Source: Squalus acanthias (Eukaryota). From it: a DNA stretch of 64,000 nt. Location: the NCBI GenBank assembly GCA_030390025.1, contig JASTWF010000034.1, positions 2,976,001 to 3,040,000 of the forward strand. Direction: 5' to 3'. Below the pieces are notes generated by a model that worked only from the letters and a program-made list of their open reading frames with translations, did not search any database and was not told the DNA's origin. Positions 23,731 through 62,600 of this stretch are shown here, in pieces; positions within the stretch are counted from its first letter, which is position 1, and each line of letters begins with the position of its first letter. Both the position numbers and the translations under genes were made by a program.

Positions 23731-23769
23731 CCCTTACTGAGAAGATAGGCTTCCTGTCCTTTCTCTTTT

Positions 23770-24444: not shown

Positions 24445-25337
24445 GGGGGAAAAATTCAGTTTGTTGCGCCTCCCATTAGCGCCTTAAGAGGGCGCTAATT
24501 TGGCGCAAAGCATCTAGCGCCCAGGCGCGGCGAAGTTTGCGCCGCCCGCTAAATTAACTGGACATTTTGCGGCGGCGCTAAACACTACCGCCACGATCTC
24601 CTGCGCCGGCAGATCGTGACGTCACTGGAGTGCGCAACGCCCCGGTATCGCCCCGGAGCGGATATTGAGTGGCGCCCCCTGCCTTACCGCCTGACGCTAG
24701 CAACGACAGGTTGAGAGGAGCGTTCTGCAGTCATGAAGGGAAAGGGGGAGCGCTATTTAAAGTTGACCGCTTCCTGCCTTTTATTGTTGGTGCCATTTTT
24801 GAACTACGCATTCTGAGAGAGAGAGGGAGAGACTTCTGGAGAGATTCAACGTTGTGTGAAGGAGTTTTGGGTACTGAGCAGCACTTTGCAGGTTCATTTT
24901 GAGTTGCCATTCCTTGTATCGATTTAGCAGAGACTGTGGGTGCTGCACTCTGAGCTCTTTGCCTGGTACTCTCCATTGTTCTTTCCAGCACATTTGATGT
25001 GCAGGTCTCTCCAGGCCGAGATTCAAGGTTGCAATGAGCAGGATGTGGATGGAAAGCAAGATTAACCATCCCCTTTAAGAACTGGCCCGTGCCATTGTGT
25101 GTGTGTTCCATTGCTGACTGACATTACATGAGCTTCGCCAGCGCTCTGAGGTAGCGCCTCGCTCCTCGGCCTTTGCACCTTAAGACAGGCGTGAAGCGCC
25201 TGATATAGCGCTGCAATCACCTCCAGGGGCGATAAAAGTCAAGTTTGCAGTCGGTGGCGATAATTAGCGCCAGGCGCTAATCTTTGCGCCCGGCCGATAA
25301 TTGCGCCCCAAATGGGGCGATACTGAATTTCTCCCCC
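24445..25337. mobile_element. Non-autonomous Harbinger element (MITE), 893 bp
   Basis: TIRs GGGGGAAAAATTCAGT / ACTGAATTTCTCCCCC (15/16 match); 3-bp TSD ATA at 24442-24444 and 25338-25340; 24600-24900 resembles the 22250-22530 region upstream of the Harbinger pseudogene. Confidence 0.85.
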
Positions 25338-39910: not shown

Positions 39911-42804
39911 ACTCTCTGCAGCGGGGAATAAAGTTGCAGTTAAAGTTAGTTTGACATGATGCCCTCTACACCAGGGAATAAAGTTACAGTTAATTGTTAA
40001 TTTGACATGATGCCCTCTACAACGGTGAATAAAGTTACGGTAAATTGTTAATTTGACATGATACACTCTACACCAGGGAATAAAATAACAGTCAATTGTT
40101 AATTTGACATGATGCCCTCTACACCGGGGAATAAAGTTACAGTTAATTGTTAATTTGACTTGATAACCTCTACACCAGGGAATAAATTACAGTTAATTGT
40201 TAATTTGACATGATTCCCATTACACTGTGGAATAAAGTTACAGTTAATAGTTAATTAGACATGTTACCTCTACACCGGGGAATAAAGTTACAGTTAATTG
40301 TTAATTTGACATGATACCCTCTACACCAGGGAATAAATTTACCGTGAATTTTTAATTTGAGATGATACCCTCAACACCGGGGAATAAAGTTTCAATTAAT
40401 TGATGACTTAGACATCATGCCCTCTACACCAGGGAATAAAGTTAAAGTTAATTGTTAATTTAGACATGATGTCAGCTACACCAGGGAATAAAGTTTAAGT
40501 TAATTGCTAATTTGACATGCTACCATCTACACCGGGGAATAAAGTACTAGTTAATTGTTAATTTGACATGATGCTCTCTCCACTGGGGAATAAAGTTGCA
40601 GTTAATTATTAATTTAAACATTATACCCGCTACACCGGGGAATAAATCGGCAGTTAATTGTTAATTTAGATATGATGCCTTCTACACAAGGGAATAAATT
40701 TACAGTTAATTTTTAAGTTTACATTTACCCTGCACACTGCGGAATAAATTAACAGTTACTTGCTAATTTCACATGATACCCTCTACACCGGGGACTAAAG
40801 TTAAAGTTGATTGTTAATTTGACATGATACCCTCTACACCGGGGACTAAAGTTACAGTTGATTGTTAATTTAGATATATTACCCTCTACACCCGGGAATA
40901 AATTTACAGTTAATTGTTAATTTAGACATGATTCCCCCTACACCATGGAATACATTTACAGTTAATTGTCAACTTGACAGAATGCCCTCTACACCGGAGA
41001 ATAATGTTAAAGTTAATTATTAACTTAGAAATAATTCCCTCTACTCCGGGGAATAAAGTTACAGTTAATTGTTAATTTGACAGGATGACCTCTACACCGG
41101 GGAATAATGTTACAGTTAATTATTAACTTAGAAATAATTCCGTCAACTCCAGGGAATAAAGTTACAGTTAATTGTTAATTTGACATGATGATCTCTACAC
41201 CAAGGAATAAAGTTAAAGTTAATTGTTAATTTGACATGATGCACTCTACACGGGGGAATTATGTTACATTTGTTTGTTAATTTGACATGATGCCCTCTAC
41301 ACTTGGGAACAAAGTTACATTCAATTGTTAATTTAGACATGATACCCTCCACAGCGGGGAATTATGTTACAATCAATTGTGAATTTGAAATGATACCCTC
41401 CACATCGGGGAATAAACTTACAATTACTTTTTAATTTTACACGATGCCTTCTACACCGGGGAATAAAGTTACAGTTAATAGTTAATTTAGACATGAATCC
41501 CTCTACACCGGGGAAAAAGCTACAGTTAATTATTAATTTGACATGATACACTCTACACCAGGGAATAAAGTTACAGTTCCTTGTTAATTTAGATATGATA
41601 CCCTCAACACCGGGGAATAACGTTACAGTTAATTGTTATTTTAGACATGATATCCTCTACACTGTGGAATAAATTTACATTTAATTGTTAATTTAGACTT
41701 GATATCCTCTAAGCCAGAGAAAAAAGTTACAGCTAATTGTTAATTTGACAGGATACCCACTACACCGGGGAATAAAGTTACAGTTCATTGTTAATTTGAA
41801 ATGATACCCTCTATTCGGGTAATAAAGTTACATTTAATTGTTAATTGTATATGATATCCTGTAAACTGGGGAATAAAGTTGAAGTTAATTATTTATTTGA
41901 TATGTTGCACTCTAAACCGATGAACAAAGTTACAGTCAATTGTTAATTAAGACATGATTTCCTCTACAGTGGGGAATAAAGTTACAGTTAATTTTAAATT
42001 TAGACATGATACCCTCTACACAGGGGAATTATGTTACAGTTAATTGTTAATTTGAAATGATGCCCTCTACACTGGGTAATGAAGTTATAGTCAGTTGTTA
42101 ATTTGAAATGATACCCTCTACAACGGGGAATAAAGTTACAGTTAATTGTTAATTTGACATGAATCCCTCTACACCGGGGAATTATGTTACAGTTAAGTGT
42201 TAATTTGAAATGATGCACTCTACACCGGGGAATGAAGTTACAGTCAATTGTTAATTTGACATGATATCGTCTGCACCGGGGAATAAAGTTTCAGTTAAAT
42301 GTTAATTTGACATGATTCCCTTTACATCGGGGAGTAAAATTTCAGTTAAATGTTAATTTTACATGATACCCTCTACAACAGGGAATAAAGTTATAGTTAA
42401 TTGTTAATTTAGACATGATGCTCCCTACATCGGGGAATAAAGTTATAGTTAATTGTTAAATTGACATGATGCCCTCTACACCGGGGAATAAAGTTACAGT
42501 TAATTATTATATTGACATGATACACACTACACCAGGGAATATAGATACAGTTCATTGTTAATTTAGCCACGATAGCCTGGACACTAGGGAATAATGTTAC
42601 AGTTAATTGTTAATTTAGACATGATATCATCTGCACTGGGGAAAAAGTGACAGTTAATTGTTAATTTTACATGATGCCCTCTACACCGGGGAAAAAAGTT
42701 ACAGTTGATTGTTAATTTGACATGATACCCTGTACAATGTGGAATAAAATTGCATTCAATTGTTTATTTTACATGATAACCTCCACACGGGGAATAAAGA
42801 TATT

Positions 42805-43567
42805 GGCCCAGAAATTCGTCCGAATACGGGAGAGTACGCAGTGTGTACTCACCCATATTCGGTCCGGAAATGCCGGTTTCCTGCATGCACTGCGCATGCG
42901 CGGGAAACCAGCACTTCAGATATTGTGAAGGGGGCGGTTCCTAAGTGAACCGCGTGCGCACTACAGGCTGTGCGCACGCAGCACACTTAGTTTTTTTTCA
43001 GTTTGAACGCGCAGGTAAGTGTTGAAGATTTTACACATGAAGAAAGGAGGTGTAAGACCCCCTATTAACAAGGTAAGTAGTTAATTAAGTATTATTTAAA
43101 AAAAATTTCAACAGGTTTATCTTTTTTAGAGACTTTAAAGAAAGGTAAGTTTATTTTTATAACTTTTAAAAAGAATTTAACATTTTTCAAAAATTTAAAT
43201 TTTTGTTTAAAGTGGTTAATTTATTTAACTATAGTTATTTTATTAATGTATTGGTTTCTTTTAAAATTTAATTGAGCTTTAGCTGTTCTTTTGGGGGCAA
43301 GTTGTATTCACAGCTTTGACAGCTCTTCCTGTCAAAACTATGAATGAAAGATGGTGTGCTGCCATTGGCTCTAACTGGCCCACGTGATCCCAGAGGTCGC
43401 ATCGAACTAACTGCGCCTCTGGGACACGCACACACTGCGCGCCAGCACCAGGGAGAGGCCCAGGAACTGAAGTTTGTGTGGGCCAAAACCATAAAGGCAG
43501 GCGCGGAGTGCGATATCGCGGGGGATCCTTACCCCCGCGGCAACCATCGAAGTCCAATTTCTGGGCC
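42805..43567. mobile_element. Harbinger MITE (763 bp) related to the autonomous element at 55763-60462
   Basis: 12-bp perfect TIR GGCCCAGAAATT / AATTTCTGGGCC; TSD ATT (42802-42804, 43568-43570); the first ~110 bp match the reverse complement of 60350-60462. Confidence 0.88.
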
Positions 43568-43569
43568 AT

Positions 43570-46272
43570 TGTGGCGGATCGCCACCTAAACGGGTGCAAT
43601 CCACTTGACCGTCCGTGGACAATAAATCGGGCACCTTGCCTTTAAGGCGCATGCTGCCTTTAAGGCAGGAAAAAAGGAGTGGGCGTGGCCTCTGGGTTTT
43701 TGCACAGAAATGTTGTAGCAGCCATTTTACCAGAGATGTGATTAAAAGCTATGTGTTTCACATATTGACTCGGCCTCAATTCGTGCTTCGCAGCAGCCAC
43801 AACATTGGTGACCCCAACGCTCAGAATGTATTCCGAGCACTGCTATGGCGGACACGAACACAGTTTCCGTGAAACTGCCGGAGTTGTGGGAAAACCAGCC
43901 CGAAGCCTGGTTTCTCCAAGCCGAGTCCCGATTCCGGCTGCAACGCATCACCACAGATGGGATGAAGTACGACTACCTCGTCACATCACTCGGTAGCTCC
44001 ACAGTTACGAAGGTCTGGACAGCGCTGCAGAACCCACCAGAGGGGGGCAAGTGTGCACATCTTAAGGCCGCACTCCTTAAAAAATTTACGGCCTCGACAT
44101 ACCAGCGAAACTGCCACCTCCTCGACCTTCCAGGCCTCGGTGATGCCTCTCCGTCAGACCTCCTCTCCCACATGCTCTCCCTCACCGACGAGAGCCCACC
44201 CGGATCCCTCTTCTGCACGCTGTTCATCCGCCAGCTACCTTTCAGCATCCGCCAAGCGATCGTGGCGTCCGGCCTCACGGACCTGGAAGCCCTGGCCGAT
44301 GGGGCCAACAAGCTGTTGTCCAATCACTCCAGCTGCGACGTTACTCCGGACCTGGCAGCCACTTCCTGGGCGTGCCCCTCACTGGCCACCACGTGGCCAC
44401 AAGGCCCAGCCACCGGGCTCACGGGGCCTTCGCGCCCCACTAACCCGGGCCACTGTTACTACCACGCACGGTTCGGCGCCAGGGCACAATGGTGCACACC
44501 TCCCTGCTCTTTAAAGTCCACTCCCGTACCAGCCCCCGCGATGGCCGTGGGCCACACGGCCTCCCTGCTTTAAGTCACGGATGACAAATCTGGCCACCGG
44601 TTCCTGTGTGAAACTGGAGCTCAGCACAGCGTCATCCCGGCCTCCTCCCTCGACATCCAAAAGGGCAAACGTGGACCGGCGCTGGCTGCTGCTAACGGCT
44701 CGGACATCCGGACATACGGCACCCGCACAGTCACCCTCGACCTCGCTGGTCGCCGCTACCGATGGGAGTTCTTCACTGCCAAGGTGCTCTCCCCTCTCAT
44801 CGGCACGGATTTGCTGTGCGCCCACGGCCTACTGGTAGACATCCCTCGACACCACCTCGTGGACATGAACACCATGTCCCCCATCCTGGACGCCATGGCC
44901 CTCCGTCAACCCGCCGACATGGCGTCACAGTGCCACGTCCGGGCCACGGATGACGACTCGGCACTCCTGCCCGAATTCCCGGTCCTTACCAATCCGACCT
45001 TCTCCGCGGAGGCCGCCAAACACGGGGTGGAACACTTCATCCCCACCACAGGCCCCCCAGTGTATGTCCACACCCGCAGGCTGGACCCGGCCAAACTGGA
45101 GATCGCGCGGACCGAGTTTGCCAGCATGGAAAAGCTCGGCATCATCCGCCGCTCCAACAGTCCCTGGGCATCCCCACTCCACATCGCCCCCAAACCAGGT
45201 GGGGCTTGGCTCCCCTGCGGGGATTACCGCCGCCTCAACGACGCCACCACCGCCGACATCGCCAGAGCCTTCATCAGCACCTGGGTCGCACGGTTCGGCA
45301 TCCCCTCCGACATGACGTCGGACAGAGGTCCGCAATTTACCTCTGAACTCTGGACCGCCGTCGCACGCAATCTCGGGGTGAACATTCACCGCACCACAGC
45401 GTACCAACCCGAAGCCAATGGACTGTGTGAGCGATTCCACAGATCCTTGAATGCATCTCTTCGAGCCAGCCTCCAGGACGGCACCTGGACCGACCGACTC
45501 CCGTGGGTCCTCCTCGGCCTGCGTACCGCGGTTAAAGAAGACCTCCACACATCGGCAGCAGTGCTCGTGTATGGCCAGCCGCTGGGCGTACCCGGCGAGT
45601 TCCTGCCAACCGCCACGACACCCTGGTCAGCCGACCAGCAACACCACGACTTCGCCTCACCGGCACTACTGTTCGCCCCGGTGCCCATTCCCTGACACGG
45701 CGAATCCACCTCACACATCCCACTAAGCCTGCACGTGGCACGGTTCGTTTTCGTCCGGCACGGCGCCCACCATGGACCCCTTCAACCCCCGTACGACGGG
45801 CCCTACAAGGTGCTACAGTCTGGGGACAAATCTTTCACCCTGCAAGTGGGCGACAGGACCGAAAAATTGTCGGTTGACCGACTCAAGCCAGCACACTCGG
45901 AGCCCGGTGAGCAGGTCCCGGTAGCTCGTCCACTGACAGTTCAGCCAGCTGCTCCACGCCCGGCCTTTCCACGTCCACCGGCGTCCTACAAGAGTCGGTC
46001 CAGCCGGCCCATCAGACCGCCACAACGTCTCGTTCACACCTCCTAAGTGGATTCTGCGGGGAGCAGTGTGGCGGTTCGCCACCTAAACGGGCGCATTGCA
46101 CGTTTCCGTCCGTGGCAATAAATTGGGCACCTTGCATTTAAGGCGCATGCTGCCTTTAATGCAGGACAAAAGGAGTGGACGTGGCCTCTGGGTTTTTGCA
46201 GAGATGTGATTAAAAGCTATGTGTTTCACATATTGACTCGGCCTCAATTCGTGCTTCGCGGCAGCCACAGCA
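43570..46272 (+). mobile_element. Ty3/Gypsy LTR retrotransposon, internally deleted (non-autonomous)
   Basis: LTRs at 43570-43804 and 46067-46272; PBS TGGTGACCCCAACG (tRNA-Trp type); purine-rich PPT at ~46057-46066; TSD ATAT; gag, PR (RFLCETGAQHSVIP), RT start fused to the IN core. Confidence 0.92.
43845..44573 (+). CDS. gag: Gypsy gag
   Basis: 242-aa ORF just after the PBS: VKLPELWENQPEAWFLQAESRF, with C-terminal CYYHARFGARAQWCTPPC. Confidence 0.85.
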   Translation: MADTNTVSVKLPELWENQPEAWFLQAESRFRLQRITTDGMKYDYLVTSLGSSTVTKVWTALQNPPEGGKCAHLKAALLKKFTASTYQRNCHLLDLPGLGDASPSDLLSHMLSLTDESPPGSLFCTLFIRQLPFSIRQAIVASGLTDLEALADGANKLLSNHSSCDVTPDLAATSWACPSLATTWPQGPATGLTGPSRPTNPGHCYYHARFGARAQWCTPPCSLKSTPVPAPAMAVGHTASLL

Positions 46273-46754
46273 ATATAGTCAATTGTTTATTTGACATGAT
46301 ACCCTCTACACTGAGAAATAAAGATAGTCAATGTTTTATTTGACATGATACCCTCTACACCTGAGAATAAAGTTACAGTTAATTGTTAAGTTGATAGGAC
46401 GGCCCTCTACACCGGGGAATAATGTTACAGTTAATTATTAATTTAGACATAATTCCCTCTAATCCTGGGAATAAAGTTACAGTTAATTATTTAATTGACA
46501 TGATACACTCTACTCCAGGGAAAGAAATTACAGTCAATTATTAATTTGACATGATACCCTCTGCACCGGGGAATAAAGTTAGAGGTAATTGTTAATTTAG
46601 ACATGATTCCCTCTAGACCAGGGAATAAAGTTACAGATAATTGTTTATTTGATATGATTCCCTCTATACCAGGGAATAAAGTTTCAATCAATTGTTAATT
46701 TGACATTATAACCACTGAACCTGGGAATAAAGTTACAGTTAATTGTTAATGTAG

Positions 46755-49700
46755 GGGTCAGTGTCTGGAGCGGAGAGAGCAGCAGCACAGTGAGTAGGTA
46801 AACTCACTTTCGCGGGCTTTTTTCCAGAGGCCAGTGTCGGGAGCGGAGAGAGCAGCAGCACAGTGAGTAGTTAAACTCACTTCCGTGGGCTTTTTACAGA
46901 GGCCAGTGTCGGGAAAGGGACCTTGAGTATATCATTTAATTGAAGTGAAATTGGTGGGATTCATTTAATTTAATTTTAATTAATTCATTAAAGGGTAAGT
47001 CATGGCAGGAGAGCTCCGCCCCGTGATATGCTCCTCCTGCTATATGTAGGAAATCTAGGGACCCTTCCGGTGTCCCTGACGACCATGTGTGTGGGAAGTG
47101 TATCCAGCTGCAGCTACTGCTAGACCGCATTGCAGCGCTGGAACTGCGGATGGATGCATATTGGAGCATTCGCGACGCTGAGAACGTCGTGGATAGCACG
47201 TTTAGCGAGTTGGTCACACCGCAGATAAAGGATGTACAGGCAGGAAGTGAATGGGTAACGACCAGGCAGAGTAAGAGGTGAAGGCAGGTAGTGCAAGGGT
47301 CCCCTGTGGCCATCCCCCTCTCAAACAGATATACCACTTTGGATACTGTTGAGGGGGATGACTTATCAGGGGAAGGCAGCAGCAGCCAACTTCCTGGCAC
47401 CATGGGTGGCTCTGCTGCACAGGCTGGGAGGAAAAAGTGTGGAAGGGCTATAGTGATAGGGGACTCAATTGTAAGGGGAATAGATATGCGTTTCTGCGGC
47501 CGCAAACGAGACTCCAGGACGATGTGTTGCCTCCCTGGTGCAAGGGTCAAGGACGTCTCGGAGCGGCCACAAAACATTTTGGAGGGGGAGGGCGAACTGC
47601 CCGTTGTCGTGGCGCACATAGGCATCAACGCTTTAGGTAAAAAATGGGATGAGTTCCTAAAAGCAGAATATAGGGAGTTAGGAGGTAAATTAAAAAATAG
47701 GACCTCAAAGGTAGTAATCTCAGGATTGCTACCAGTGCCACGTACTAGTCAGAGTAGAAATAGGAGGATATTTCAAATGAATACGTGGCTAGAGGAATGG
47801 TGCAAGGGGGTGGGATTCAAATTCCTTGGACATTAGAACCGGTTCTGGGGGATGTGGGACCAGTACAAACGGGTCGGTCTGCACCTGGGCATGGCCGGAA
47901 CCGATGTCCCAGGCGGAGTGTTCGCTATTGCACTTCGGGAGGGTTTAAACTAAAGTGGCAGGGGGTTGGGAAGCTGAGCAGGGAGACAGAGGAAAGGGAA
48001 AAAAGGATAAAAGCGAAAGACAGGAAGGAGAAAAACAGAAGTAGAAGACAGAGAACTCAACGGTTTCAATCAAACATGGTCACATTAAATAATAATTCAC
48101 AAAGGTCTGAGAACCTTAAAAAAAAGCCTGAAGGCTTTGTGTCTTAATGCAAGGAGCATTCGGAACAAGGTGGATGAATTAGCTGCGCAACTAGAGGTAA
48201 ATGAATACGATTTGATTGGGATTGCAGAAACATGGCTCCAGGGTGACCACGTCGGGGAACTCAACATGCAGGGTTATTCAATATTTAGGAAAGATAGGCA
48301 AAAAAGAAAGGGAGGTGGGGTAGCATTGCTGGTAAAAGAGGGGATTAACACAATTGAAAGAAGGATATTAGCTCTGATGATGCGGAATCTGTATGAGTAG
48401 AACTGCGAAATAACTAGGGGCAGAAAACGATAGTGGGAGTGGTATATAGACCTCCAAACAGTAATACGAATGTTGGGGACCTCATTAAAAGGGAAATTAG
48501 AGAAGCATGCAGTAAGGGCACAGCAGTCATCATGGGTGACTTTAATTTACATATAGATTGGGCTAAGCAAATTAGTAAAAGTACCGTGGAGGAGGAATTC
48601 CTAGAATGTTTACGGGATGGTTTTCTGGAACAATATGTCGAGGAACCAACCAGAGATCAGGCCATCTTAGACTGGGTATTATGTAACGAGAAAGGATTAA
48701 TTAGCAATCTTGTTGTCCGGGGCCCCTTGGGTGAGAGTGATCATAATATGATAGAATTCTTAATTAGGATGGAGAGTGAAGTAGTTGAATCAGAGACTAG
48801 GGTCCTGAATTTAAATAAAGGAAACTTCGATGGTTTGAGGCGCGAATTGGGTAGGATTGATTGGGGAATGTCACTCAAAGGGTTGACGGTGGATAGGCAA
48901 TGGCAAACATTCAAAGACTGCATGGATGAACTACAGAATTTGTTCATCCCAGTGTGGCATAAGAATAAAGCAAAAAGGGTGACTCAACCGTGGCTAACAA
49001 GGGAAATTAAGGATAGTATGAGATCCAATGAGAGGGCATATAAATTGGCCAGAAATAGCGGTAGCCGTGAGGATTGGGAGCAGTTTAGGATTCAACAAAG
49101 GAGGACAAAGGGATTAATTAAGAAGGGGAAAATAGAATATGAAAGTAAGCTTGCAAGGAACTGTCTGTAAGAGCTTTTATACATATGTGAAGAGAAAAAG
49201 ATTAGTGAAATCAAGTGTAGATCCTTTGCAGTCAGAAGCGGGGGCAGTTATAATGGGGAACAAAGAAATGGCAGACCAATTAAATGCATATTTTGGTTCT
49301 GTCTTCACAAAGGAGGACATAAATAACCTCCCAGAGATGTTGGAGAATATAGGGTCTGATGAAAGGGAGGAACTGAAAGAAATCAGTATTTGCTGGGAAA
49401 TGGTGTTAGGGAAATTGACAGGATTGAAGGCCGATAAATCCTCAGGGCCTGATAATCTACATCCTAGGGTAATTAAGGAAGAGGCTCTAGAAATAGTAGA
49501 TGCATTGCTGGTCATCTTCCAACATTCGATGGAATCTGGAACTGTACCCGTGGATTGGAGGGTAGCTAATGTTACCCCACTATTCAAAAAGGGTGGTAGA
49601 GAGAAAGCCTGACATCGGTAGTGGGGGAAATGCTAGAGTCCATTATAAAGGATGTAATAGCTGAGCGCTTGAAAAACAGTGAAAGGATCGGACAAAGTCA

Positions 49701-50995
49701 ACATGGATTTACAAAAGGTAAATCGTGCTTGACTAATCTACTGGAATTTTTTGAGGATGTAACTGGGAAAATAGATAAGAGAGAACCAGTAGATGTGGTG
49801 TATTTGGACTTTCAAAAGGCTTTCGATAAGGTCCCGCATAAGATATTAGCGTGTAAAGTTAAGGCACATGGGATTGGGGGCAAGGTATTGACTTGGATAG
49901 AGAACTGGTTGGCGGACAGAAAGCAGAGAGTATGAATTAATGGGTCTTTTTCCGAGTGGCAGGCAGTGACTAGTGGGGTACCACAGGGATCGGTTCTTGG
50001 AACCCAGCTATTCACAATATACATTAATGACCTAGATAAGGGAACTAAATGTAATATCTCCAAGCTTGCAGATCACACAAAGCTGGGTGGGCGTGTGTGC
50101 TGCGAGGAGGATACCGAGAAACTCCAGGATGATTTGGACAGGTTGGATGAGTGGGCAGAAGCGTGGCAGATGTAATATAACGTGGATAAATGCGAGGTTA
50201 TCCACCTTGGTGTCAAAAACAGAAAGGCAAGCTATTTTCTGAATGGCAATAAATTGGGAGAAGGGGAAGTGCAACGAGACCTGGGTGTCCTTGTGCACCA
50301 GTCGCTGAAGGTAAGCATGCAGGTGCAGCAGGCGGTGAAGAAGGCAAATGGTATGTTGGCCTTCATAGTGAAAGGGTTTGAGTATAGGAACAGGGATGTC
50401 CTGCTGCATTTGTACAGGGCCGTGGTGAGACCACACCTTGAGTACTGTGTGCAGTTTTGGTCACCTTATCTGAAGAAGGATGTTCTTGCCATGGAAGGAG
50501 TTCAGCGAAGATTCACAAGGCTGATACCTGGGATGGTAGGAATGACATATGAGGAGAGATTGGGTCGATTGGGCTTATACTCGCTGGAGTATAGAAGAAT
50601 GAGAGGGGATCTCATCGAAACATATAAAATTCTGACAGGTCTGGACAAACTAGATACAGGAAGAATGTTCCCGATGGTGGGAGACTCAAGAACCAGGGGT
50701 CATTATCCAAGGATAAGGGGTAAGCCATTTAGGACAGAAATGAGGAAAAATGTCTTCACCTAGAGAGTGGTGAATCTGTGTAATTCTCTACCACAGAAGG
50801 TATTTGAGGCCAAGTCATTAAATATATTCAAGAATGAGTTAGATATATTTCTTAAAGATAAAGTTATCAAGGAATATGGGGAGAAGGCAGGTACAGGGTA
50901 CTGAGTTTGGATGATCAGCCATGATCTCATCGAATGGCGCAGCAGGCTCGAGGGGCCGAATGGCCTACTCCTGCTCCTATCTTCTATGTTTCTAT
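46755..50995 (+). mobile_element. Near full-length CR1 (HER1-like) LINE, degenerate, inserted in the satellite
   Basis: 5' UTR with ~70-bp tandem duplication; ORF1 from ATG 47002 (CxxC..CxxC, GDSIV esterase); APE (LNARSI, AETWL, MGDFN, SDH); RT; 3' GGCCGAATGGCC and CTATGTTTCTATG tail; many stops. Confidence 0.95.
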
Positions 50996-53900
50996 GTAAG
51001 ACATGATTCCATCTACACCGGGGAATATAGTAATAGTTAATTAATAATTTGACAAGATACACTCTACATCATTGAATAAAGTTACAGTCATTGTTAATTT
51101 AGACATGATACTCTCTACAACGGGGAATAATGTTTCAGTTAATTGTTAATGTGACATGATAACCTCTACACCGGGGATGATGTTACAGTTGATTGTTAAT
51201 TTGACATGATACCGTCTACACCTGGTAATAAATTTACAGTTAATTGTTAATTTGACATGATAACCTCTACACAAGGGATTAAAGTTACAGTTAATTGTTA
51301 ATTTGACATGATACCCTCCACACCAGGGATTAAAGTTACAGTTAATTGTTAATTTAGACATGATATCATCTACACCAGAGAACAAAGTTACAGTTCATTT
51401 TTAATTTAGACATTATACCCTCTACACCGGGGAATAAAGTTACAGTTAATTGTTAATTGAGACATGTTTTCCTCTACACTGGGGAATTTTGTCACAGTTA
51501 ATTGTTAATTAAGACATTGTATCCTCTACACCAGAGAATAAATTTACAGTTAATTTTTAATTTGACATGATACCCTCTACAACGGGGAATAAAGTTATAG
51601 TTAATTGTAAATTTGACATGATATCCTCTGCATCAGGGAAAAAAAGTTACAATAACTTGTTAATTTGATATAATACCCTCTACACCAGGGAATACATTTC
51701 CAGTTATTTGTTAATTTGACATGATATCTTCTTCACCAGAAATAAAGTTACAGTAAATTGTTAATTTGACATGATATCCTCTGCACTGGGGAATACATTT
51801 ACAGTCAATTGTTAATTTAGACATGATTCCCTCTACAGCAGGGAATAATGTTACAGTTAATTATTAATTTGACATGATACTCTCTACACCAGGGAATACA
51901 GTTACAGTTCATTGTTAATTTAGACATGCTACAATCTACGCTGGGGAATAATGTTACAGTTAATTGCTAATTTTACAAGATACCCTCTAGACCGGGGAAT
52001 AAAAATTACAGTTAATTGTTAATTTGGCATGGTACACACTTCACCGGGAAATAAAGTACCAGTCAATTGATAAATTAATCATGATAGGCTCTGCACCGGG
52101 GAATAAATTTTAAGTTAAATGTTAACTTGACATGATTCCATCTATCCGGGGATTAAGGTTACAGTCAATTGTTAACTTAACATGATACCCACTGCACTGG
52201 GGAATAAATGAACACTCAAGTGTTAATTTAGTTATGAAACCCTCTGCACCGGGGAATAAAGTTTCAGTAAAATGTTAATCTGAGATGATTACCTCTGCAC
52301 CGTGCAATAAAGTTACAGTTAAATGTTAATTTGACATGATGCCCTCTACACCGTGTAATAAAGTTGCAGTTAATTGTTAATTTAGATATGATTCCCTATA
52401 CACAGGGGTATAAAGTTATAGTTAATTATTAATTTGACATGATGCCCTCTACATCTTGTAATAAAGTTACAGTTCATTGTTAATTTAGACATGTTAACCT
52501 CTATACCAAATAATTTTGTTACAGGTAATTGTTAATTTGACATGATACCCTCCACACTGTGTAATAAAGTTACAGTCATTTTTTTTTTCATGATATCCTA
52601 TACACCGGGGTATAAAGAGGCAGTTAATTGGAAATGGTACCCTCTAGACCGGTAAAATACAGTTACAGTTAATTGTTAATTTCGACATGGGGCCCTCTAC
52701 ACTGGCGAATATGGTTACAGTTCATTGTTAATTGAGACGTGATAACCTTTAATCCGGGGAATAAGTTTACAGTTAATTGTTAATTTAGACATGATAAACT
52801 CTGCACTGTGGATTAAAGTAACAGATAATTGTTAATTTAGACATGATATACTCTACACCACAGAATAAAGCTACAGTAAATTTTTAATTTGATATGATAT
52901 CCTGTACACGAGAGAATAAATTTAAGTTAATTTTTAATCTGACATAATATCCTCTACACCGGGGAATAAAGTTAATTTAATTGTGAATTTGACATGATAT
53001 CCTCTACACTGGTGAAAAATGTTCTGTTAATTGTTAATTTAGACAGGATACTCTCTACACCAGAGAATAAAGTAACAGTTAATTGTTAATTTAGACATGA
53101 TACTCTCTACACTAGAGACTAAATTTAGAGTTAATTGTTAATTTAGACATGATACCCTCTACACCAGAAAATAAAGTTACAGTTAATTGTTGAATTTCCA
53201 TGATACCCTCAACACTGTCGAATAAAGATACAGTTATTTTTTTTAACATGGTAATCTCTACACTGGTGAATACAGATACACTTAATTTGAAATGGTATGC
53301 TCCACACCGGGAAAAAATTACAGTTAATTGTTAAATTTGACATGATACACTCTACACCCTGGATGAAAGTTAAAGTCAATTCTTAATTTGATATGATACC
53401 CTCGGCACCGGGGAATAAAGTAAAGGTCAATTGTTAAATTAGACATTAAATCCTCTACACCGGTGAATAAAGTTACAGTTAATTGTTAATTCGACATGAT
53501 GTCCGCGACACTGGGGATAATGTTATAGTTAATTGTTAATTTCGACGTGATGCCCTCTACACCGGTGAATAAAGTTATAGTTAATTGTTAATTTAGATAT
53601 GATGCCTTCTACATACGGGAATAAATTTACAGTTATTTGTTAATTCAGATATGTTTCCCTCCACACCGTGAAGCAAATTTACAGTTAATTGTAAGTTAAG
53701 AAAATATTCCCACCACACCAGGGAATAAAGTTACTGTCAATTGCTAATTTGACATGATACCCTCTACACCAGGGTATAAAGTTACAGTTAATTGTTAATT
53801 TAGACATCTTGGCCTCTACACTGAGGATACAAGATTACAGTTAATTGTTAATTCGAAATGATACCCTGTACACTGGGGAATAAAGTTACAGTTAATTGTT

Positions 53901-56233
53901 AATTTGACATGATAACCTCTAATACCGGGGAATAAAATTACAGTTAATTGTTAATTTGACATGATACCCTCGGCACCGGGGAATAAAGTAAATGTCAATT
54001 TTTAATTTAGACATGAAGCCCTATACACCAGGGAATAAATTACAGATAATTGTTAATTTGACATGATATCCTCTACACTGGGGAATAATGTTAAAGTTAA
54101 TTGATTATTTGTCATGATGGATGTCCACTACAGCGGGGAATAAAGTTATAGCTAAATGTTAATTTCGACGTGATGCCCTCTACACTGGTGAATAAAGTTA
54201 CAGTTCATTGTTAATTTAGACATGATACCTTCTACACAGGGGATTAAATGTACAGTTATTTGAAAATTTAGATATGTTTCCCTCCACACTGTGAAATCAA
54301 GTTACAGTTAATTGTAAATTAAGAAAAGTTTCCCACCACACCAGGGAATAAAGTTACTGTCAATTGCTAGTTTGACATTATATCCTCTACACCGGGGAAT
54401 ACAGTTACCTTTAATTGTTAATTTAGACATGATACCCTCTACACCAGAAAATAAAGTAACAGATAACTGTTGAATTTTCATGATACCCTCTACACTGTGG
54501 AATAAAGTTACAGTTTTTTTTTTACATGGTAATCTCTACACTGGGGAATAAAGATACAATAATTTGAAATGGTACCCTCTCCACCGGGGAATAAACTTAC
54601 AGGTAATTGTTAATTTGACATGATACCCTCTACACCGGGGAATAAAGTTACAGGTAATTGTTAATTTGACATGATGCCCTCTACACCGGGAAATAAAGTT
54701 GAAGTTAATTTTTGATTTTACATGATACCCTCTACATTGGGGAATACAATTACAGTAAATTGTCAATTTAGATATGAGACCCTCTACACCAGAGAATAAA
54801 GTTACAGCTAATTGTTGAATTTACATGATACCCTCCACACTGTGTAATAAAGTTACAGTCATTTTTTTTGAACATGATAATCTCTACACCGGGGAATAAA
54901 GCGGCAGTTAATTGGAAATGGTACCCTCTAGACCGGGGAATAAAGTTACAGTTAATTGTTAATTTCGACATGCGGCCCTCTACACTGGGGAATATAGTTA
55001 CAGTTCATTGTTAATTGAGACGTGATAACCTTTAATCCGGGGAATAATTTTACAGTTAATCGTTAATTTAGACATGATAAACTCTGCACTGTGGATTAAA
55101 GTAACAGATAATTGTTAATTTAGACATGATATCCTCTACACCATAGAATAAAGCTACAGTTAATGTTTTCTTTGACATGATTTCCTGTACACGAGAGAAT
55201 AAATTTACAGTTAATTTTTAAACTGACATAATATCCTCTACACCGGGGAATAAAGTTAATTTAATTGTTAATTTGACATGATATCCTCTACACTGGGGAA
55301 AAATGTTACAGTTAATTGTTAATTTAGACATGATACTCTCTACACCAGAGATTAAAGTTAAAGTTAAGTGTTAATTTGGACATGATACCCTCTACACCAG
55401 AAAATAAAGTTACAGTTAATTGTTGAATTTACATGATACCCTCAACACTGTGGAATAAAGTTACAGTTATTTTTTTTAACATGGTAATCTCTACACTGGG
55501 GAATACAGATACAGTTAATTTGAAATGGTACCCTCTACACCGGGAAAAAAATTAGAGTTAATTGTTAATTTTGACATGATACACTCTACACCCTGAAATA
55601 AAGTTAAAGTCAATTGTTAGTTTGATATGATACCCTCGACACCGGGGAATAAAGTGAAGATCAATCGTTAAATTAGACATTAAATCCTCTACACCGGGGA
55701 ATAACGTTACAGTTAATTGTTAATTCGACATGATGTCCAATACACTGGTGAATAAAGTTATTGGGCCAGAAATTGATCTGGCTCCGTTCCCGCGGGTGTA
55801 AGGAGCAGGCGCGGTAATACATTCCGCGTCTGCCGTTTCGTCTTTTCCACGGAGAAAATTCATCTTCTGGCTGATTGAGTGCAGGGCAGCGTATGACGTC
55901 ACACTGCCCTGCAGCGCAGCGTGCGCGTTGCATCGCGTGCGATGTGGAGTGAAGACACGCCCATTAAGGTCTCTTTTCCATAGGCCACGCCCCCGATTTT
56001 TTTCTCCACTGAAACCATTGTACAGCTGCTGAAGACACAGTTTTCTCACTGTATCAGGTGGAATTTGCAGTAAGTAGGTTTTAAATGCATGGTTTTGTAA
56101 ACTTTTAAAGATTTTTAGTATAATTTGAGTAATGTTAAACATTTGCAAAGAGATTTAAAGTAATTTAAATAGTTTTAAAAGTGCAGAAATCATTTTTTTC
56201 AGAGATTTAACTGTTTATAATCAGCAAACGAAA

Positions 56234-57787
56234 ATGGCTGCTATCAGCACTATCCAATTTATCAAAAGAACACAGAATTTCAGTGATGATGATCTCCGTA
56301 CACTTCTTGACGAGGTAGAATCGAAACGTTCACGGATAATTGGAACTCAGAAGTCCAAGCCGCCGCGAAAAGGCCAAATGGCAGCGTGGAAAGAGGTTGC
56401 TCAAAGTGTGAGCGCAACCTCGACCATTCCTCGTACAGCTGAGCAATGTCGCAAAAAATTCAGCGATTTATATCGAACGCTGAAGGTTTGTATAGTTATA
56501 ACAAAAGTCAATGTTAAAATGTCTTTACATTTAAAATGAAAAGCCTTGAAAAAGTGTTTGTTTGCTAAGCTGAGTTAATTGAAGTCACAAGATGCTCCCA
56601 TAAATTTTTATGGCTTTTGTAGCCAGGCAAGTCTCATAAAATGCTAATGTCATCTTGATTGAAATGCTTTGAGTTGCTTACTGAGTTAACTGTGTGAGTG
56701 CCAATGCAGTTTTGGTGTAAAAACCCTTACATTTCAGATTTTCATTTTCAATTTTAGAGTAAAACTGCTCACAACGCCAGAGAACGTTCACTGACAGGCG
56801 GTGGTGTTGTCACGTTAAGGGCTTTAACCGAACATGAGGAAAGGCTCGAGCATATCTTTGGATATCTTAGCGGATGTCCCTTTGGAAATGAACGATTCGA
56901 CAAAGGTGATGTGTGCTGAATAGCTTCTGTGATGTGGCACATCATGCTTTACCTTTGCTAATCTTTACTGTTTCCTTTACATAGGTTTACAGCATACTTC
57001 TCAGTCACGGGATGAACAGTGCGTTGAGTCTGCAGCCGAAGAGGTCATTGGTGAAGGGCATGTTGAGCCAGTGGGAGATGCGAGTGAGGTGGTGGTGGAG
57101 GAGCAGCAGGAGGAATTTTTTGCTGAATTAAACATGGAGGTTCTGGAATCTGGGTTGCAGGAGAGGTCCTCTCAATCATCCTCTCCAACTCCTGGCCCCT
57201 CTGGCTCTGTGCCAAACAGACAGCAGCTTGATACTACAGTGCCTGTGGGAGACACAGATATATATGCAGCAGAACAGGAGATGCATGGTCACATCCACCA
57301 ACTTGTAGGCTTGACTCAATCGATCTCTTCTCTTTCAGAGAAAGAAGTTGATTGTCTTACCTTGGTCAAGCAGGGAGTGGAATGTCTGTGCATGTCATTT
57401 AATGAAATGAAAGATCATATCATATTTCAAAATCTGGGAATGGAGCTTAAGAATATAAATGAGTCTCTTGAAGGACTGTTGCAGAAACCCGATGTGGGAG
57501 TGCAGCTTAGTAAAATAAATGAGTCTCTTGAAGGAATGTTGCAGAAACCCGATGTGGGAGTGCAGCTTAGTAAAATAAATGAGTCTCTTGAAGGACTGTT
57601 GCAGAAACCCGATGTGGGAGTGCAGCTTAGTAAAATAAATGAGTCTCTTGAAGGACTCATGCGAATAATTTCTGCTGCAATTACTGTGACTCCATCAGAA
57701 CCAACCTTACCTGCTCCCAGCGCAGAATCAGTGCAGGTCCAAGAGCCACCAACGATGATGCAATCAAGAAAGCGCAAGAGACGTTAG
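56234..57787 (+). CDS. Harbinger Myb/SANT-like DNA-binding protein; 3 exons (56234-56485, 56758-56905, 56985-57787), 400 aa
   Basis: RTQNFSDDDLRTLL..AWKEVAQSV..RTAEQCRKKFSDL trihelix; TGGG motif in exon 2; GT-AG introns keep the frame (252+148+803 = 1203 nt); C-terminal RKRKRR. Confidence 0.88.
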
Positions 57788-58289
57788 GGTGTTGCATGTT
57801 CCACAATGCACATCCATTGACCCTCAGGAATAGTTTATTTGTGGTTAAATTTTTCAAGTGTTTAATTTTTAGTTTTATTTAAAACTTACATGTTTACATT
57901 TTTCTTTATTTATATATATATTTGACACTGAAACTGAAAGTTAGCTTTTCATTGAAAAAGTACAGCCTTTAGTCACTTTATAAAAATTCAAATTGTTTAT
58001 TTTCACAAAAAAATTGAACATTTAAACTTGTTTACATTTAGGAAAGAGTTATTTCCCATCTTGAATGTCTTTACTGCATTAACGAAGCAAAAAGTTACTG
58101 AGAACTGTTAACAAATTTTTGAAAAACCTATTTCTGTTTACGATTGTTTACAAAGTTGAAAAGTAGCTAGTTAACATTGAAAAGTTATAAACTATGTAAA
58201 GCAACAATGAACCTCAGAAGTCTGTAATGCTGCAATAAAAGAGCACTGTTTCACTTTAAATTGTGTCTGTACCTTTATTTTCCTTGCTG

Positions 58290-58533
58290 GTGGAGAGGGA
58301 GGGGGAGGGGGAGAGGGAGAGGGATGGGGAGAGGGAGGGGGAGGGGGAGAGGGAGGGGGAGAGGGAGAGGGAGGGGGAGGGGGAGAGGGAGAGGGAGGGG
58401 GAGGGGGAGGGGGAGAGGGAGGGGGAGAGGGGAGGGGGAGAGGGGAGGGGGAGAGGGGAGGGGGAGGGGGAGAGGGAGAGGGAGAGGGGAGGGGGAGGGG
58501 GAGGGGGAGGGGGAGAGGGAGGGGGAGAGGGAG
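58290..58533. repeat. (GGGAGA/GGGGGA)n polypurine microsatellite
   Basis: About 240 bp of G/A only, beginning just past the transposase stop codon. Confidence 0.95.
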
Positions 58534-58546
58534 GTACAAGGCGACA

Positions 58547-59698
58547 CTACCTCGTGAAGGTGTTGGCTACCAGCTGCTCCCGAGCAGCCTTACTTTGAGC
58601 AGCAGTTGGCTCTTCCCCATCATGCCTTCCCACAGGCACATTGGCATTGTCCACGTCCTCCATTTCTGCAGGTAGTTCATCTGCAGCGTTAAGGGTCAGT
58701 CCTTCCTGCAGGGCAAAGTTATGCAAAGCACAACAGGCCACCACAATCTTTGCCACTTTCTGAGGAGAATACTGCAAGGTTCCCCCTGACCTGTCCAGGC
58801 ACCGGAAGCGTGATTTCAGAACTCCAATTGTCCTCTCCACCACTTGCCGTGTGGACACGTGTGCCTGGTTGTATCTCTCCTGAGCCTCATTATTGGTCTT
58901 GCGGTAGGGAGTCATCAGCCATGGTCTTAGCGGGTAGCCCTTGTCGCCCAATATCCATGCGGATCCTGGAGGCAATGCGTTGAGGACGCCATATAAGTCA
59001 GAGTTACGGAGGACGAAGGAGTCATGATTACTTCCACGGTTACCTGCATTCACATTTAAGATCCTGAGATGCGCATCACAGACAATCTGGACATTCAGTG
59101 AATGAAACCCCTTCCTGTTGATAAATGTCACAGGTGCAACCCCTGGTGCCTTCAATGCTACATGGGTTCCATCGACAGCCCCAATCACTTTGGGGAATCC
59201 AGCAATGTTATGAAATGCAAGCGCCATCTCCTTTTGATGGCGAGCAGACAAGTCATACTTAATGAACTCAGAAGCCCTACGGAAAATGACTTCTGTGACC
59301 TGGTGAATGCAGGCCCTCGCAGCATTCTTGGATATGTTGCAAATGTCACCGGTGCTTGCCTGAAAAGTCCCACTTGCAAAGAAGTTCAGTGCTGTGGTTA
59401 CCTTCATGCTCAGTGACAATGCATTGCGGTTCTTCGTGCGTGTTTGAAGGTCCTCCTTTAACATCTCACAGATTCGGCCAATTGACTCTTTACTGAAGCG
59501 CAGCCTCCTCACACACAGCTCCTCCGACAGCATCTCAAATGACAGCCTCTGCCTGTACACTCTATTTGGTGGGTAGTAGTTTCTCCTTCTCTGGAGGAGA
59601 CGGGCTTGGTTCCTCCGTCTGATTAGTTGTCTGTATTCGAAAATTCTCAGATACGCAATCCCACAGAGGAGGAAGAGGATTCGATTGCAAAAGGGCAT
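58547..59698 (-). CDS. Harbinger DDE transposase (HARBI1-like), 383 aa, uninterrupted
   Basis: KVTTALNFFASG, GAVDGTHV (D), NRKGFHSLNVQIVCD, GSNHDS, LGDKGY (D), RQVVERTIGVLKSRFRCLD (E), CCALHN. Confidence 0.95.
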   Translation of the reverse strand: MPFCNRILFLLCGIAYLRIFEYRQLIRRRNQARLLQRRRNYYPPNRVYRQRLSFEMLSEELCVRRLRFSKESIGRICEMLKEDLQTRTKNRNALSLSMKVTTALNFFASGTFQASTGDICNISKNAARACIHQVTEVIFRRASEFIKYDLSARHQKEMALAFHNIAGFPKVIGAVDGTHVALKAPGVAPVTFINRKGFHSLNVQIVCDAHLRILNVNAGNRGSNHDSFVLRNSDLYGVLNALPPGSAWILGDKGYPLRPWLMTPYRKTNNEAQERYNQAHVSTRQVVERTIGVLKSRFRCLDRSGGTLQYSPQKVAKIVVACCALHNFALQEGLTLNAADELPAEMEDVDNANVPVGRHDGEEPTAAQSKAAREQLVANTFTR

Positions 59699-62600
59699 CT
59701 TTCTCTCACACAGGCTTCCTCCTCAAACTGAAAGTTGTAATGAAAAAATGGAAATAGTTGTTAAAGTAACTTTAGTTAAGTGAGTGCCTATAAAATCAGG
59801 TCAGGCTATGGTGGGACACGTGCGCTATCAACTTGGGAACACATCTACCCGCCACACGGCCCTAGCTGATTTTCCAAAACTGTAACATTTTCATAAATTC
59901 ATACATACATACATACATACTTACTTACTTACTCATTTTCATCTTTAAAACTTTTTGAAACGTAAACAGTTCATTTTTAAACTTTCATTTTCACAGATAG
60001 ATACCTAAATATGCCTTGTACACACCCACAGTTGCTATACTACTCCAAATGGTCAAAACCCGTTTTAATTTTTTTTTAAAAAAACTCTTAACTTATATAA
60101 GACTTCATTTAAAACTTTTGTGTCTTTCAGATTTAAAAAACTCACCTCAGTAGCCACACTCCAAAAGGATTTCTTCCTCCTACTATCTCGGTAAATGTAT
60201 AAATGGCTGCTGCTCCTGGTTTTAAAATGTGTAACTGCTAGGAGCTTACACACACTACTCTCATTCACAAAAAAAAAGAATTTTCCGACGCACGCGCAGG
60301 ATCACCAGCCCACGCGATTACTCGCATATCCATGAAACTGACCAGACATGAAGTGCCGGTTTTCAGCGCATGCGCAGTGCATGCAGAAAACCGGCAATTG
60401 CAGAGGGAATACGCGAGTGTACGCAGTGCGTACTCTCGCTCACCAGGATGAATTTTTGGGCCATTGTTAATTGTTAATTTCGACGTGACGCCCTCTACAC
60501 CGGTGAATAAAGTTACAGTTAATTGTTAATTTAGATATGATGCCTTCTACATACGGGAATACATTTACCGTTATTTGTTAATTCAGATATGTTTCCCTCC
60601 ACACCATGAAATAAAGTTACAGTTAATTGTAAATTAAGAAAAGATTCCCACCACACCAGGGAATAAAGTTACTGTCAATTGCTAATTTGACATGATACCC
60701 TCTACACCAGAGTATAAAGTTACAGTTAATTGTTAATTTAGAAATGATACCCTCTACACCGGGGAATAAAGTTACAGTTAATTGTTAATTTGACATGATA
60801 CCCTCTACACTGGGGAGTAAAGTTACAGTTAAATGTTAATTTGACATGATTCCCTCTACACCGGGGAATTAAGTTACAGTTAATTGTTAATTTGAAATTA
60901 TGACCTCTACACCGGGGAATAAAGTTACAGTTAATTGTTAATTTAGACATGATACCTTCGACACAGGCGAATAAATTTAAAGTTAATTGTTAATTTAGAC
61001 ATGATTTTCTCTTCACGGAGGAATAAAGTTATAGTTAATTGTTAATTTAGAAATGATTCCTTCTACATCGCAGAATAAATTTACAGTTCATTGTTAATTG
61101 AGACATGATAACCTTGACAATGGGGAATAAAGGTATAGTTAATTGTTAATTTAGGCATGATAAGCTCTGCACTGTGGATTAAAGTAACAGATAATGGTTA
61201 ATTTAGACATGATATCCTCTACACCAGGGAATAAAGTTACAGTTAATTTTTAATTTAAATTATATCCTGTACACAAGAGAATACATTTACAGTTAATCTT
61301 AATTTGACATGATACCCTCTGCACCGGGGAATAAAGTTACAGTTAATTATTAATTTGACATGATACCCTCTACACCGGGGAATAAAGTTACAGTTAATTG
61401 TTAATTTTGACATGATACCCTCTGCACCGGGGAATAAAGTTACAGTTAATTGTTAATTCGACATGATGTCCGCTACACTGGGGAATAATGTTATAGTTAA
61501 TTGTTAATTTAGACATGATACCCTCCACACCAGAAAATAAAGTTACAGATAATTGTTGAATTTTCATGATACCCTCTACACTGTGGAATAAAGTTACAGT
61601 TTTTTTTTAACATGGTAATCTCTACACTGGGGAATAAAGATACAATAATTTGAAATGGTACCCTCTCCACCGGGGAATAAAGTTACAGGTAATTTTTAAT
61701 TTGACATGATACCCTCTACACCGGGGAATAAAGTTACAGTTAATTGTTGATTTTACATGATGCCCTCAACACCGGGGAATAAAGTTGAATTTAATTGTTA
61801 ATCTGTCACGATACCCTCTACACTGGGGAATACAATTACAGTAAATTGTCAATTTAGACATGAGACCCTCTACACCAGAGAATAAAGTTACAGCTAATTG
61901 TTGAATTGATGTGATACCCTCCACACTGTGTAATAAAGTTACAGTCATTTTTTTTGAACATGATAATCTCTACACCGGGGAATAAAGAGGCAGTTAATTG
62001 GAAATGGTACCCTCTAGACCGGGGAATAAAGTTACAGTTAATTGTTAATTTCGACATGGGGCCCTCTACACTGGGGAATATAGTTACAGTTCATTGTTAA
62101 TTGAGACGTGATATCCTTCAATCCGGGGAATAATTTTACAGTTAATTGTTAATTTAGACATGATAAACTCTGCACTGTGGATTAAAGTAACAGATAATTG
62201 TTAATTTAGACATGATATCCTCTACACCATAGAATAAAGCTACAGTTAATGTTTACTTTGACATGATATCCTGTACACGAGAGAATAAATTTACAGTTAA
62301 TTTTTAATCTGACATAATATCCTCTACACCGTGGAATAAAGTTAATTTAATTGTTAATTTGACATGATATCCTCTACACTGGGGAAAAATGTTACAGTTA
62401 ATTGTTAATTTAGACATGATACTCTCTGCACCAGAGATTAAAGTTAAAGTTATGTGTTAATTTGGACATGATACCCTCTACACCAGAAAATAAAGTTACA
62501 GTTAATTGTTGAATTTACATGATACCCTCAACACTGTGGAATAAAGTTACAGTTATTTTTTTTAACATGGTAATCTGTACACTGGGGAATACAGATACAG

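Follow-up and report, generated by a model that had tools for sequence, protein, structure and literature searches.

The insertions that interrupt a 51-bp satellite array in the 64,000-nucleotide stretch analysed here (the window) very probably reflect the ordinary, layered decay of that array, with a Harbinger group whose extended target preference has a non-canonical ATT centre, and not a satellite-seeking system. The initial annotation had described three independent TEs at one monomer position; we found instead a MITE nested at an LTR edge, a Gypsy element at monomer phase 1-4 and a LINE at phase 18-20. Satellite targeting would be recognized by several independent insertions at one site, and the window holds one Harbinger event that lies purely within satellite.

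Elements inserted in the satellite array

The coordinates of the satellite blocks and of the elements between them are collected in Table 1, where phase 1 of the monomer is the base after GAATAAAG.

Table 1. Satellite blocks, inserted elements and target sites in the window.
Feature	Coordinates	Strand	Details
Control Harbinger-type MITE, outside satellite	24445..25337	.	TIR GGGGGARAAATT; ATA duplication; 9/12 motif match
51-bp satellite block A	39911..42803	+	~56 monomers, 89% identity to consensus
Gypsy 4-bp target duplication ATAT, left copy	42800..42803	+	monomer phase 1-4
MITE left ATT copy	42802..42804	+	AT of Gypsy duplication plus duplicated first LTR T
Harbinger-type MITE, 763 bp	42805..43567	.	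perfect 12-bp TIR GGCCCAGAAATT
MITE right ATT copy	43568..43570	+	43570 doubles as base 1 of 5' LTR
5' LTR (TG...CA), then TGG primer-site-like start	43570..43804	+
Ty3/Gypsy-type body, internally deleted	43805..46066	+	gag-like ORF (DUF7041), integrase fragment, purine tract
3' LTR	46067..46272	+	192/206 aligned bases identical to 5' LTR; 29 internal gap columns
Satellite block B	46273..46750	+	begins with right Gypsy ATAT copy (46273-46276)
CR1-type LINE, near full-length, degraded	46751..50997	+	GDSL-like ORF1, endonuclease, TTCTATGT tail
Satellite block C	50998..55762	+	ends with left Harbinger ATT copy (55760-55762, phase 3-5)
Harbinger-type element, two-gene, 4700 bp	55763..60462	.	12-bp TIRs with 2 mismatches
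Myb/SANT gene	56234..57787	+	predicted exons 56234-56485, 56758-56905, 56985-57787
DDE transposase frame, open, 383 codons	58550..59698	-	DDE_Tnp_4, E 1e-42
Satellite block D	60463..64000	+	begins with right Harbinger ATT copy (60463-60465)
Empty paralogue of Harbinger target	62840..62854	+	AAAGTT-ATT-GTTAAT (ATT at 62846)

The array is interrupted by at least four insertions, which belong to three classes. The CR1 LINE interrupts the monomer at phase 18-20, with no target duplication seen at its ends. An LTR-like end adjoins the left edge of the array at approximately phase 29; neither this end nor the LINE figured in the initial annotation. Over the four satellite blocks we counted 1200 A(A/T)T triplets, just 8 of them at phase 3 (three being target duplication copies themselves), and AAT/ATT triplets are plentiful at other phases, which bears out the earlier remark that ATT occurs elsewhere in the monomer and was left unused.

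The Gypsy element, putatively of Ty3/Gypsy type, has TG...CA LTRs, a primer-site-like TGG, a purine tract, a target duplication of 4 bp and an rve integrase fragment that scores below the Pfam cut-off. Its 5' LTR aligns from TGTGGCGG with the 3' LTR, and its body contains a protease/RT-start-like region, read by eye, with the RT largely missing. The ATAT duplication is as previously described, but the element does not occupy the Harbinger offset: its duplication lies at phase 1-4 and that of the Harbinger at phase 3-5, two bases apart. ATAT at phase 1 accounts for 2 of 61 counts, both of them duplication copies, and is rarer there than at phases 22 and 27 (50/61).

The MITE is nested one base inside the 5' LTR and is therefore later than the Gypsy element. 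Its left ATT falls at monomer phase 3-5, as does that of the autonomous Harbinger, and is chimeric, with AT taken from the Gypsy target duplication and T from the start of the LTR. As the satellite resumes as ATATAG after the Gypsy element, the monomer at this site read ATA, not ATT; the target site of the MITE was created by the Gypsy insertion, and half of it is LTR. We rejected the reverse order, in which the MITE would have preceded the Gypsy element, because the right-hand Gypsy junction should then repeat the last bases of the MITE, and it repeats ATAT instead. The position, opposite orientation and phase reported for the MITE stand, and its status as an independent insertion into a satellite variant does not. 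The MITE and the autonomous element are related at their ends only (114 bp at 80% and 76 bp at 71%).

The autonomous Harbinger is flanked by the ATT duplication at 55760-55762 and 60463-60465, as had been noted for its left end. Its DDE_Tnp_4 transposase, Myb/SANT gene, short TIRs and 3-bp duplication, the last confirmed by an empty paralogous site, are those of a PHIS/Harbinger element. The predicted splice form of the Myb/SANT gene is an open frame of 400 codons with a PF13873 match (E 3.5e-14), and the closest relatives of the transposase are shark and ray proteins. The empty paralogue belongs to the copy that follows in a higher-order duplication of 2383 bp and is 98% identical to the Harbinger flanks (7 and 8 mismatches per 400 bp on the two sides). 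The monomer that received the Harbinger at phase 3-5 thus already carried ATT, and the proposal that an ACA>ATT variant served as target holds for this element, where the variant predates the insertion, but fails for the MITE.

Fit of the insertion sites to an extended target motif

The 15-bp target of the zebrafish element Harbinger3_DR is AAACACCWGGTCTTT, as quoted in PMC3016246. We scored sites against this motif, which is borrowed from a zebrafish family with a CWG centre, either strictly or under a relaxed rule chosen post hoc. Phase 3 was the best of the 51 phases of the consensus monomer under both schemes, at 7/12 strict (next 6) and 8/12 relaxed (next 7), and also had the highest mean score across the real array. 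The three paired Harbinger-type sites, two of which have a common left half-site, scored 7, 8 and 9 of 12 strict, with weak right half-sites (3/6 for the Harbinger). Across the LTR element plus its junction (2696 positions), the MITE site, at 8 strict and 9 relaxed, is the sole A(A/T)T-centred site to score at least 8. In 1-39900, 0.14% of positions reach the strict score of the control MITE.

A scan of 1-39900 for paired TIRs yielded two distinct pairs, the control MITE and 15630-21076; the latter is probably spurious, having three TIR mismatches, a score of 5 and a left end within a LINE 3' remnant. Three other TIR-like ends in the window have no partner; one scored 4/6, another 2/6 and the third either 2/6 or 6/6 according to where its end is set, and none of them was counted. 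An inverted-repeat listing and a tRNA scan added nothing.

An 8/12 site is present in 81% of 20000 shuffled versions of the monomer, which makes the real one an unremarkable target. Among non-satellite A(A/T)T triplets, 35 of 1569 reached 8 under the relaxed rule, and under the motif phase 10 does not fall behind phase 3 in its number of open A(A/T)T sites (6/19 vs 5/19).

The Gypsy element inserted at phase 1-4 and the MITE afterwards, one base into the 5' LTR; the CR1 LINE entered at phase 18-20 and the intact Harbinger at phase 3-5 of an ATT monomer. We infer that the transposase and Myb/SANT pair would read a near-palindromic target of ~15 bp of the Harbinger3_DR type, of the form AAA-S-A-Y, central triplet, R-T-S-TTT, with A(A/T)T as the centre here. 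As AAAG-T-T at phases 49-2 is the unit's best left half-site, any change that adds ATT and then G after it would complete the target, and this would have been supplied by a point-variant monomer for the Harbinger and by the TG end of the LTR for the MITE. The two elements most likely share one spot because that spot best fits the landing motif of their group. Since one of them, the MITE, entered at the border of a retrotransposon that was already in place, the pattern looks like ordinary target choice and not a satellite-seeking system. The phase match would simply follow from a short DNA motif, and the proximity of the Gypsy element would be due to chance; for two retroelements, the probability of one or both lying no more than 2 bases from phase 3 is 19%. 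The data are accounted for by an extended target preference of Harbinger elements, as already suggested in the initial annotation.

Copies in public sequencing runs and alternative explanations

We examined four of 22 listed public runs of related material, which match at most 0.48 of words and probably derive from a genome other than that of the window. The MITE family is abundant in all four. Summed contig depth in the satellite flank, compared with the first bin wholly inside the MITE, was 1235 vs 250782, 3840 vs 278442, 30.5 vs 4343 and 0 vs 163, or 0-1.4% of MITE-end depth (zero in X10, where the MITE is present), although summed depth is not copy number and short junction contigs were possibly missed. 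This is a rough hint that most MITE copies lie outside this satellite. One contig in X2 runs from satellite into the MITE at this same phase, differs at 10 positions and by one gap over 129 bp, and could represent a second, independent insertion. Among the 24 of 712 loose contig ends listed for the four runs, none lay at a TIR, a number too incomplete to count as evidence of absence, and pattern scans of metagenome contigs and viral contigs found no further copies.

True satellite homing, in which the family would be enriched beyond the motif (chromatin tethering via the Myb/SANT protein being one conceivable route) and would use the array as a safe haven, is very unlikely. It is favoured by the placement of both family members of the window within the array at phase 3-5, by the intact, young-looking Harbinger there and by the X2 junction; however, the target of the MITE is half LTR, the satellite-flank depth is very low, a contig from X6 (among those listed) has 484 letters unlike the satellite flank ahead of the left end of the MITE, and shuffled monomers make equally good targets. 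The safe-haven system proposed in the initial annotation gains no support: just one Harbinger event lies in pure satellite, the MITE site is Gypsy-made and the motif is met outside the satellite as well. We regard as similarly improbable its fuller form, in which an elasmobranch Harbinger lineage with a new ATT-centred 15-bp target would be enriched in the satellite genome-wide, beyond the motif and always in one register; the X2 contig would then mark a second independent insertion, and intact autonomous copies would long have used the array as a refuge.

Coincidence under a 3-bp ATT preference alone, with two AT-rich elements landing in a large, AT-rich, recombination-poor and insertion-tolerant array, is very unlikely. 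The sample is tiny and the array has taken up insertions of three classes, but phase 3 offers only ~5 of the ~1200 A(A/T)T triplets, and three sites at 8-9/12 would be unexpected against a background of 0.4-2%.

Least probable of all is a structurally exposed phase 1-5, such as a bend or nucleosome linker, that draws unrelated integrases including that of Gypsy: the Gypsy and Harbinger duplications overlap, the scarcity of ATAT at phase 1 fits, and an X1 contig joins the LTR end to satellite at the same phase, reading AGAG and not ATAT, but the Gypsy element is a single event with a chance overlap of ~10% per event, the LINE and the other LTR-like end lie at different phases, and the X1 junction is probably the same old insertion, as it apparently shares with the window's junction monomer two variants that are never found together in 208 other monomers. 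An extended target preference within a decaying array remains the reading that we favour.

Relation to known transposon systems

Phase-locked insertions in a satellite can arise from a short motif and nesting, and the array described here is a caution in that respect. If homing were true, it would constitute a rare safe-haven system for a DNA transposon and a handle for retargeting Harbinger. Irrespective of this, an apparently intact vertebrate Harbinger with Harbinger3_DR-like flanks and an ATT centre is a candidate in which to identify the protein that recognizes the central triplet. In the open-access literature we found neither satellite-targeting nor ATT-centred Harbingers in sharks.

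Dada is a repeat-targeting element that uses one conserved repeat sequence as a safe target. The idea of a multicopy repeat as safe target is shared with Utopia (PMC4640811), which likewise targets one conserved repeat sequence, whereas the present motif is also met off the satellite and most copies seemingly lie elsewhere. According to PMC2836001, PIF/Harbinger elements in the strict sense and their Tourist MITEs (Ping/Pong/mPing) likewise combine a two-ORF autonomous element with abundant non-coding MITEs, a 3-bp duplication and an extended target preference, of 9 bp in plants and 15 bp in vertebrates. They differ in that the TWA duplication (Han et al. 2015) is absent here, both family members having ATT, and in that the present MITE is no deletion derivative of the neighbouring Harbinger.

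The ANT duplication of Pangu is compatible with ATT and its TIRs begin with GG, as here, but its second ORF has no known motif according to PMC4482050, whereas the present element encodes a Myb/SANT domain, and the 15 Pangu hosts listed there include no vertebrate. None of the six PHIS groups, as defined in PMC4482050, accommodates the pairing of an ATT centre with a Myb/SANT gene. With Harbinger3_DR, named NuwaI-2_DRer in Han et al. 2015 (PMC4482050), the element shares DDE transposase and Myb_DNA-bind_5 genes, a 12-bp TIR starting with GG, a length of 4-5 kb and a 3-bp duplication; at the three sites scored, 7-9 of 12 flank positions agree with the 15-bp motif. The element departs from Harbinger3_DR in its elasmobranch-like host and in its ATT centre (ATA in the third element), as opposed to the CWG of NuwaI (PMC4482050).

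Organization of insertions within the satellite array

Along with the 51-bp satellite array, several elements bearing on its interpretation were located in the window (Table). Phases were assigned by wrap-around alignment across the four satellite blocks, with phase 1 as the base following GAATAAAG; the array is 88-89% identical to its own consensus.

Table. Coordinates of the satellite array, its insertions and related features.
Feature	Position	Description
Second CR1 LINE copy	25-3530	90% identical over 800 bp, 66% further downstream
GC-rich 27/54-bp tandem array	18484-19470	Terminates at Harbinger-like right end (19470)
Degraded Harbinger-type element (by eye)	22095-23750	Transposase-like remnants; left end near 22095
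Non-satellite MITE with putative host element	24295-25340	Putative host starts with Harbinger-like end at 24295
Non-satellite MITE	24445-25337	GGGGGARAAATT ends; ATA duplication; apparently nested
LTR-like stretch	~34150-34775	Unrelated to end at 39316-39910
Broken LTR retroelement	34760-39910	Pfam fragments of RT, RNase H, integrase; LINE fragment within; single LTR-like end adjoins satellite
LTR-like end	39316-39910	Termini TGTAAG and CTTACA; adjoins array left edge, ~phase 29
51-bp satellite array	~39911 to window end	Four blocks
Gypsy target duplication	42800-42803 and 46273-46276	ATAT; phase 1-4
MITE	42805-43567	Perfect 12-bp TIRs
Subterminal motif	42873-42902 / 60357-60395	Contains TGCGCATGCGC; common to MITE and Harbinger
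Sequence 3' of Gypsy 5' LTR	43806-43823	Starts TGGTGACCCC
CR1-type LINE	46751-50997	Interrupts array at phase 18-20; 5' end retained
73-bp tandem repeat of LINE	46759-46914
Satellite with recent higher-order duplication	54468-63742	2383 bp; ~98% identical close to Harbinger site
Autonomous Harbinger	55763-60462	ATT each side; phase 3-5
60-bp repeat	57432-57657	In frame, 3.7 copies, within Harbinger Myb gene
GGAGGG-type repeat	58292-58534	Between Harbinger's two convergent genes
Empty Harbinger target	62846-62848	Next copy of the duplication

The initial annotation had described three independent elements at one offset of the monomer. The Harbinger junctions and their ATT stood, and the Harbinger lies in pure satellite; the Gypsy occupies a different set of phases, the LINE a third, and the MITE an LTR edge, with one event of each, so that the initial observation is confirmed in part. 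Neither the LINE nor the LTR-like end at the left edge had entered that annotation. For two retroelements, one or both would land no more than 2 bases from phase 3 by chance with a probability of 19%. The LTR-like end adjoining the array, of which the window contains no further copy, may therefore mark an array boundary rather than an insertion.

The MITE is nested at the Gypsy LTR edge

The last base of the right-hand ATT of the MITE (43570) is base 1 of the Gypsy 5' LTR, where the alignment of the LTR pair starts TGTGGCGG (192 of 206 bases identical). Given this position, the ATAT duplication and the resumption of the monomer as ATATAG after the Gypsy, the MITE site comprises a satellite-side AT and an LTR T, and this chimeric target places the MITE insertion after that of the Gypsy. 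The MITE thus used no satellite ACA>ATT variant, contrary to the proposal. The MITE and Harbinger share sequence at their ends only. Their subterminal motif, to which the Myb protein may bind, shows the deepest coverage within the left half of the MITE in X1, one of the public sequencing runs of related material. The sequence 3' of the Gypsy 5' LTR presumably matches the 3' end of tRNA-Trp.

Among 22 runs listed, 20 contained part of the MITE stretch and none at least half of its words. In four runs from three coded organisms, summed contig depth, which does not equal copy number, was 1235/250782, 3840/278442, 30.5/4343 and 0/163 for the satellite flank relative to the first bin fully within the MITE; flank depth is at most ~4% of MITE depth if junction contigs span just one third of the flank bin, a hint only as to satellite-flanked copies. 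Three pieces among 32 listed of 27849 leave a MITE end into 209-1685 unlike letters, and two of these, at the right end, may have satellite flank. Two junctions weigh against a reading of ordinary target choice. One piece from run X2 crosses the satellite-MITE junction (42758-42885). Its 10 differences and one gap are consistent with a diverged copy of the window locus; equally, they fit a separate insertion into a monomer close to the consensus, the difference between such a monomer and the window flank being ~5 bases and one gap by eye. In one X1 contig the LTR end meets satellite at the phase seen in the window, with AGAG instead of ATAT. We take this contig to represent one and the same old insertion because it apparently shares two rare variants of the window junction monomer, which are found together in 0 of 208 monomers elsewhere; one of the two was deduced from the point at which the alignment picks up again.

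The Harbinger occupies a pre-existing ATT variant

The transposase frame of the Harbinger is open over 383 codons (DDE_Tnp_4, E 1e-42), its closest relatives among the first ten matches being shark and ray proteins (52-67% identity), which points to an elasmobranch-like genome, and the 400-codon Myb/SANT frame is open under predicted splicing. The flanks differ from the empty paralogue by 7 and 8 mismatches per 400 bp on the two sides. As this empty site carries the same ATT, the target duplication is 3 bp and the variant predates the insertion, in keeping with the initial annotation. Alternatively, the empty site may be the product of precise excision at the paralogue, since PMC2836001 describes superfamily excision as usually perfect. 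Older satellite offsets near 2283-2331 bp accompany that of 2383 bp, and the array therefore grows in blocks of several monomers.

An extended target motif probably accounts for phase 3

Of 1200 A(A/T)T triplets, just 8 lie at phase 3, three of them duplication copies, so a triplet preference alone is insufficient. We scored matches at 12 flank positions to a palindromised motif from zebrafish Harbinger3_DR rather than the window family's own logo (target quoted as AAACACCWGGTCTTT in PMC3016246), the relaxed score allowing leniency at the two positions adjoining the central triplet. In the consensus monomer no other phase equals phase 3 (strict 7 versus 6 for the next; relaxed 8 versus 7). Strict and relaxed scores are 7 and 8 for the Harbinger site and 8 and 9 for the MITE site, which is the only A(A/T)T-centred position to reach at least 8 across the LTR element and junction (n=2696). 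The non-satellite MITE scores 9 strict, a value that 0.14% of positions in 1-39900 attain. Half-site scores at three unpaired TIR-like ends were mixed, which weighs against the motif reading; the left flank of the ~22095 end matches 6/6 under one end placement, no partner was found for the end at 24295, and the 18484-19470 array looks as if grown inside a MITE.

Among 11595 satellite positions, 19 that are unoccupied combine an A(A/T)T centre with a score of at least 8: five at phase 3, six at phase 10 and eight elsewhere, making phase 3 roughly a one-in-four choice under the motif. Nor is the monomer a specially good target, as 81% of shuffled monomers (n=20000) hold an 8/12 site. With the MITE nested and the Gypsy and LINE at other phases, a satellite-targeting system is not supported; nesting, together with an extended target preference that is ordinary except for its non-canonical centre, probably explains the data.

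Harbinger transposition requires both a transposase and a Myb-like protein (PMC2836001). The Harbinger/MITE family would read AAA-S-A-Y / R-T-S-TTT about A(A/T)T, with the left half-site coming from the monomer, always at one phase, and the centre and next G probably from a point variant or LTR end. A 9-15-bp target preference set by the element's own proteins is described for Harbinger in PMC2836001.

Comparison with known groups

No report of satellite-targeting or ATT-centred shark Harbingers was found in the open-access literature. Han et al. 2015 define PIF/Harbinger by TWA, NuwaI (including Harbinger3_DR) by CWG, NuwaII by TNA, and Pangu by ANT and a second ORF without known domain (PMC4482050); bioRxiv 10.64898/2026.05.26.728016 restates TWA only. 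The window Harbinger has the superfamily features and appears to work like Harbinger3_DR, whereas its duplication sets it apart from both PIF/Harbinger and NuwaI, and its second ORF from Pangu.
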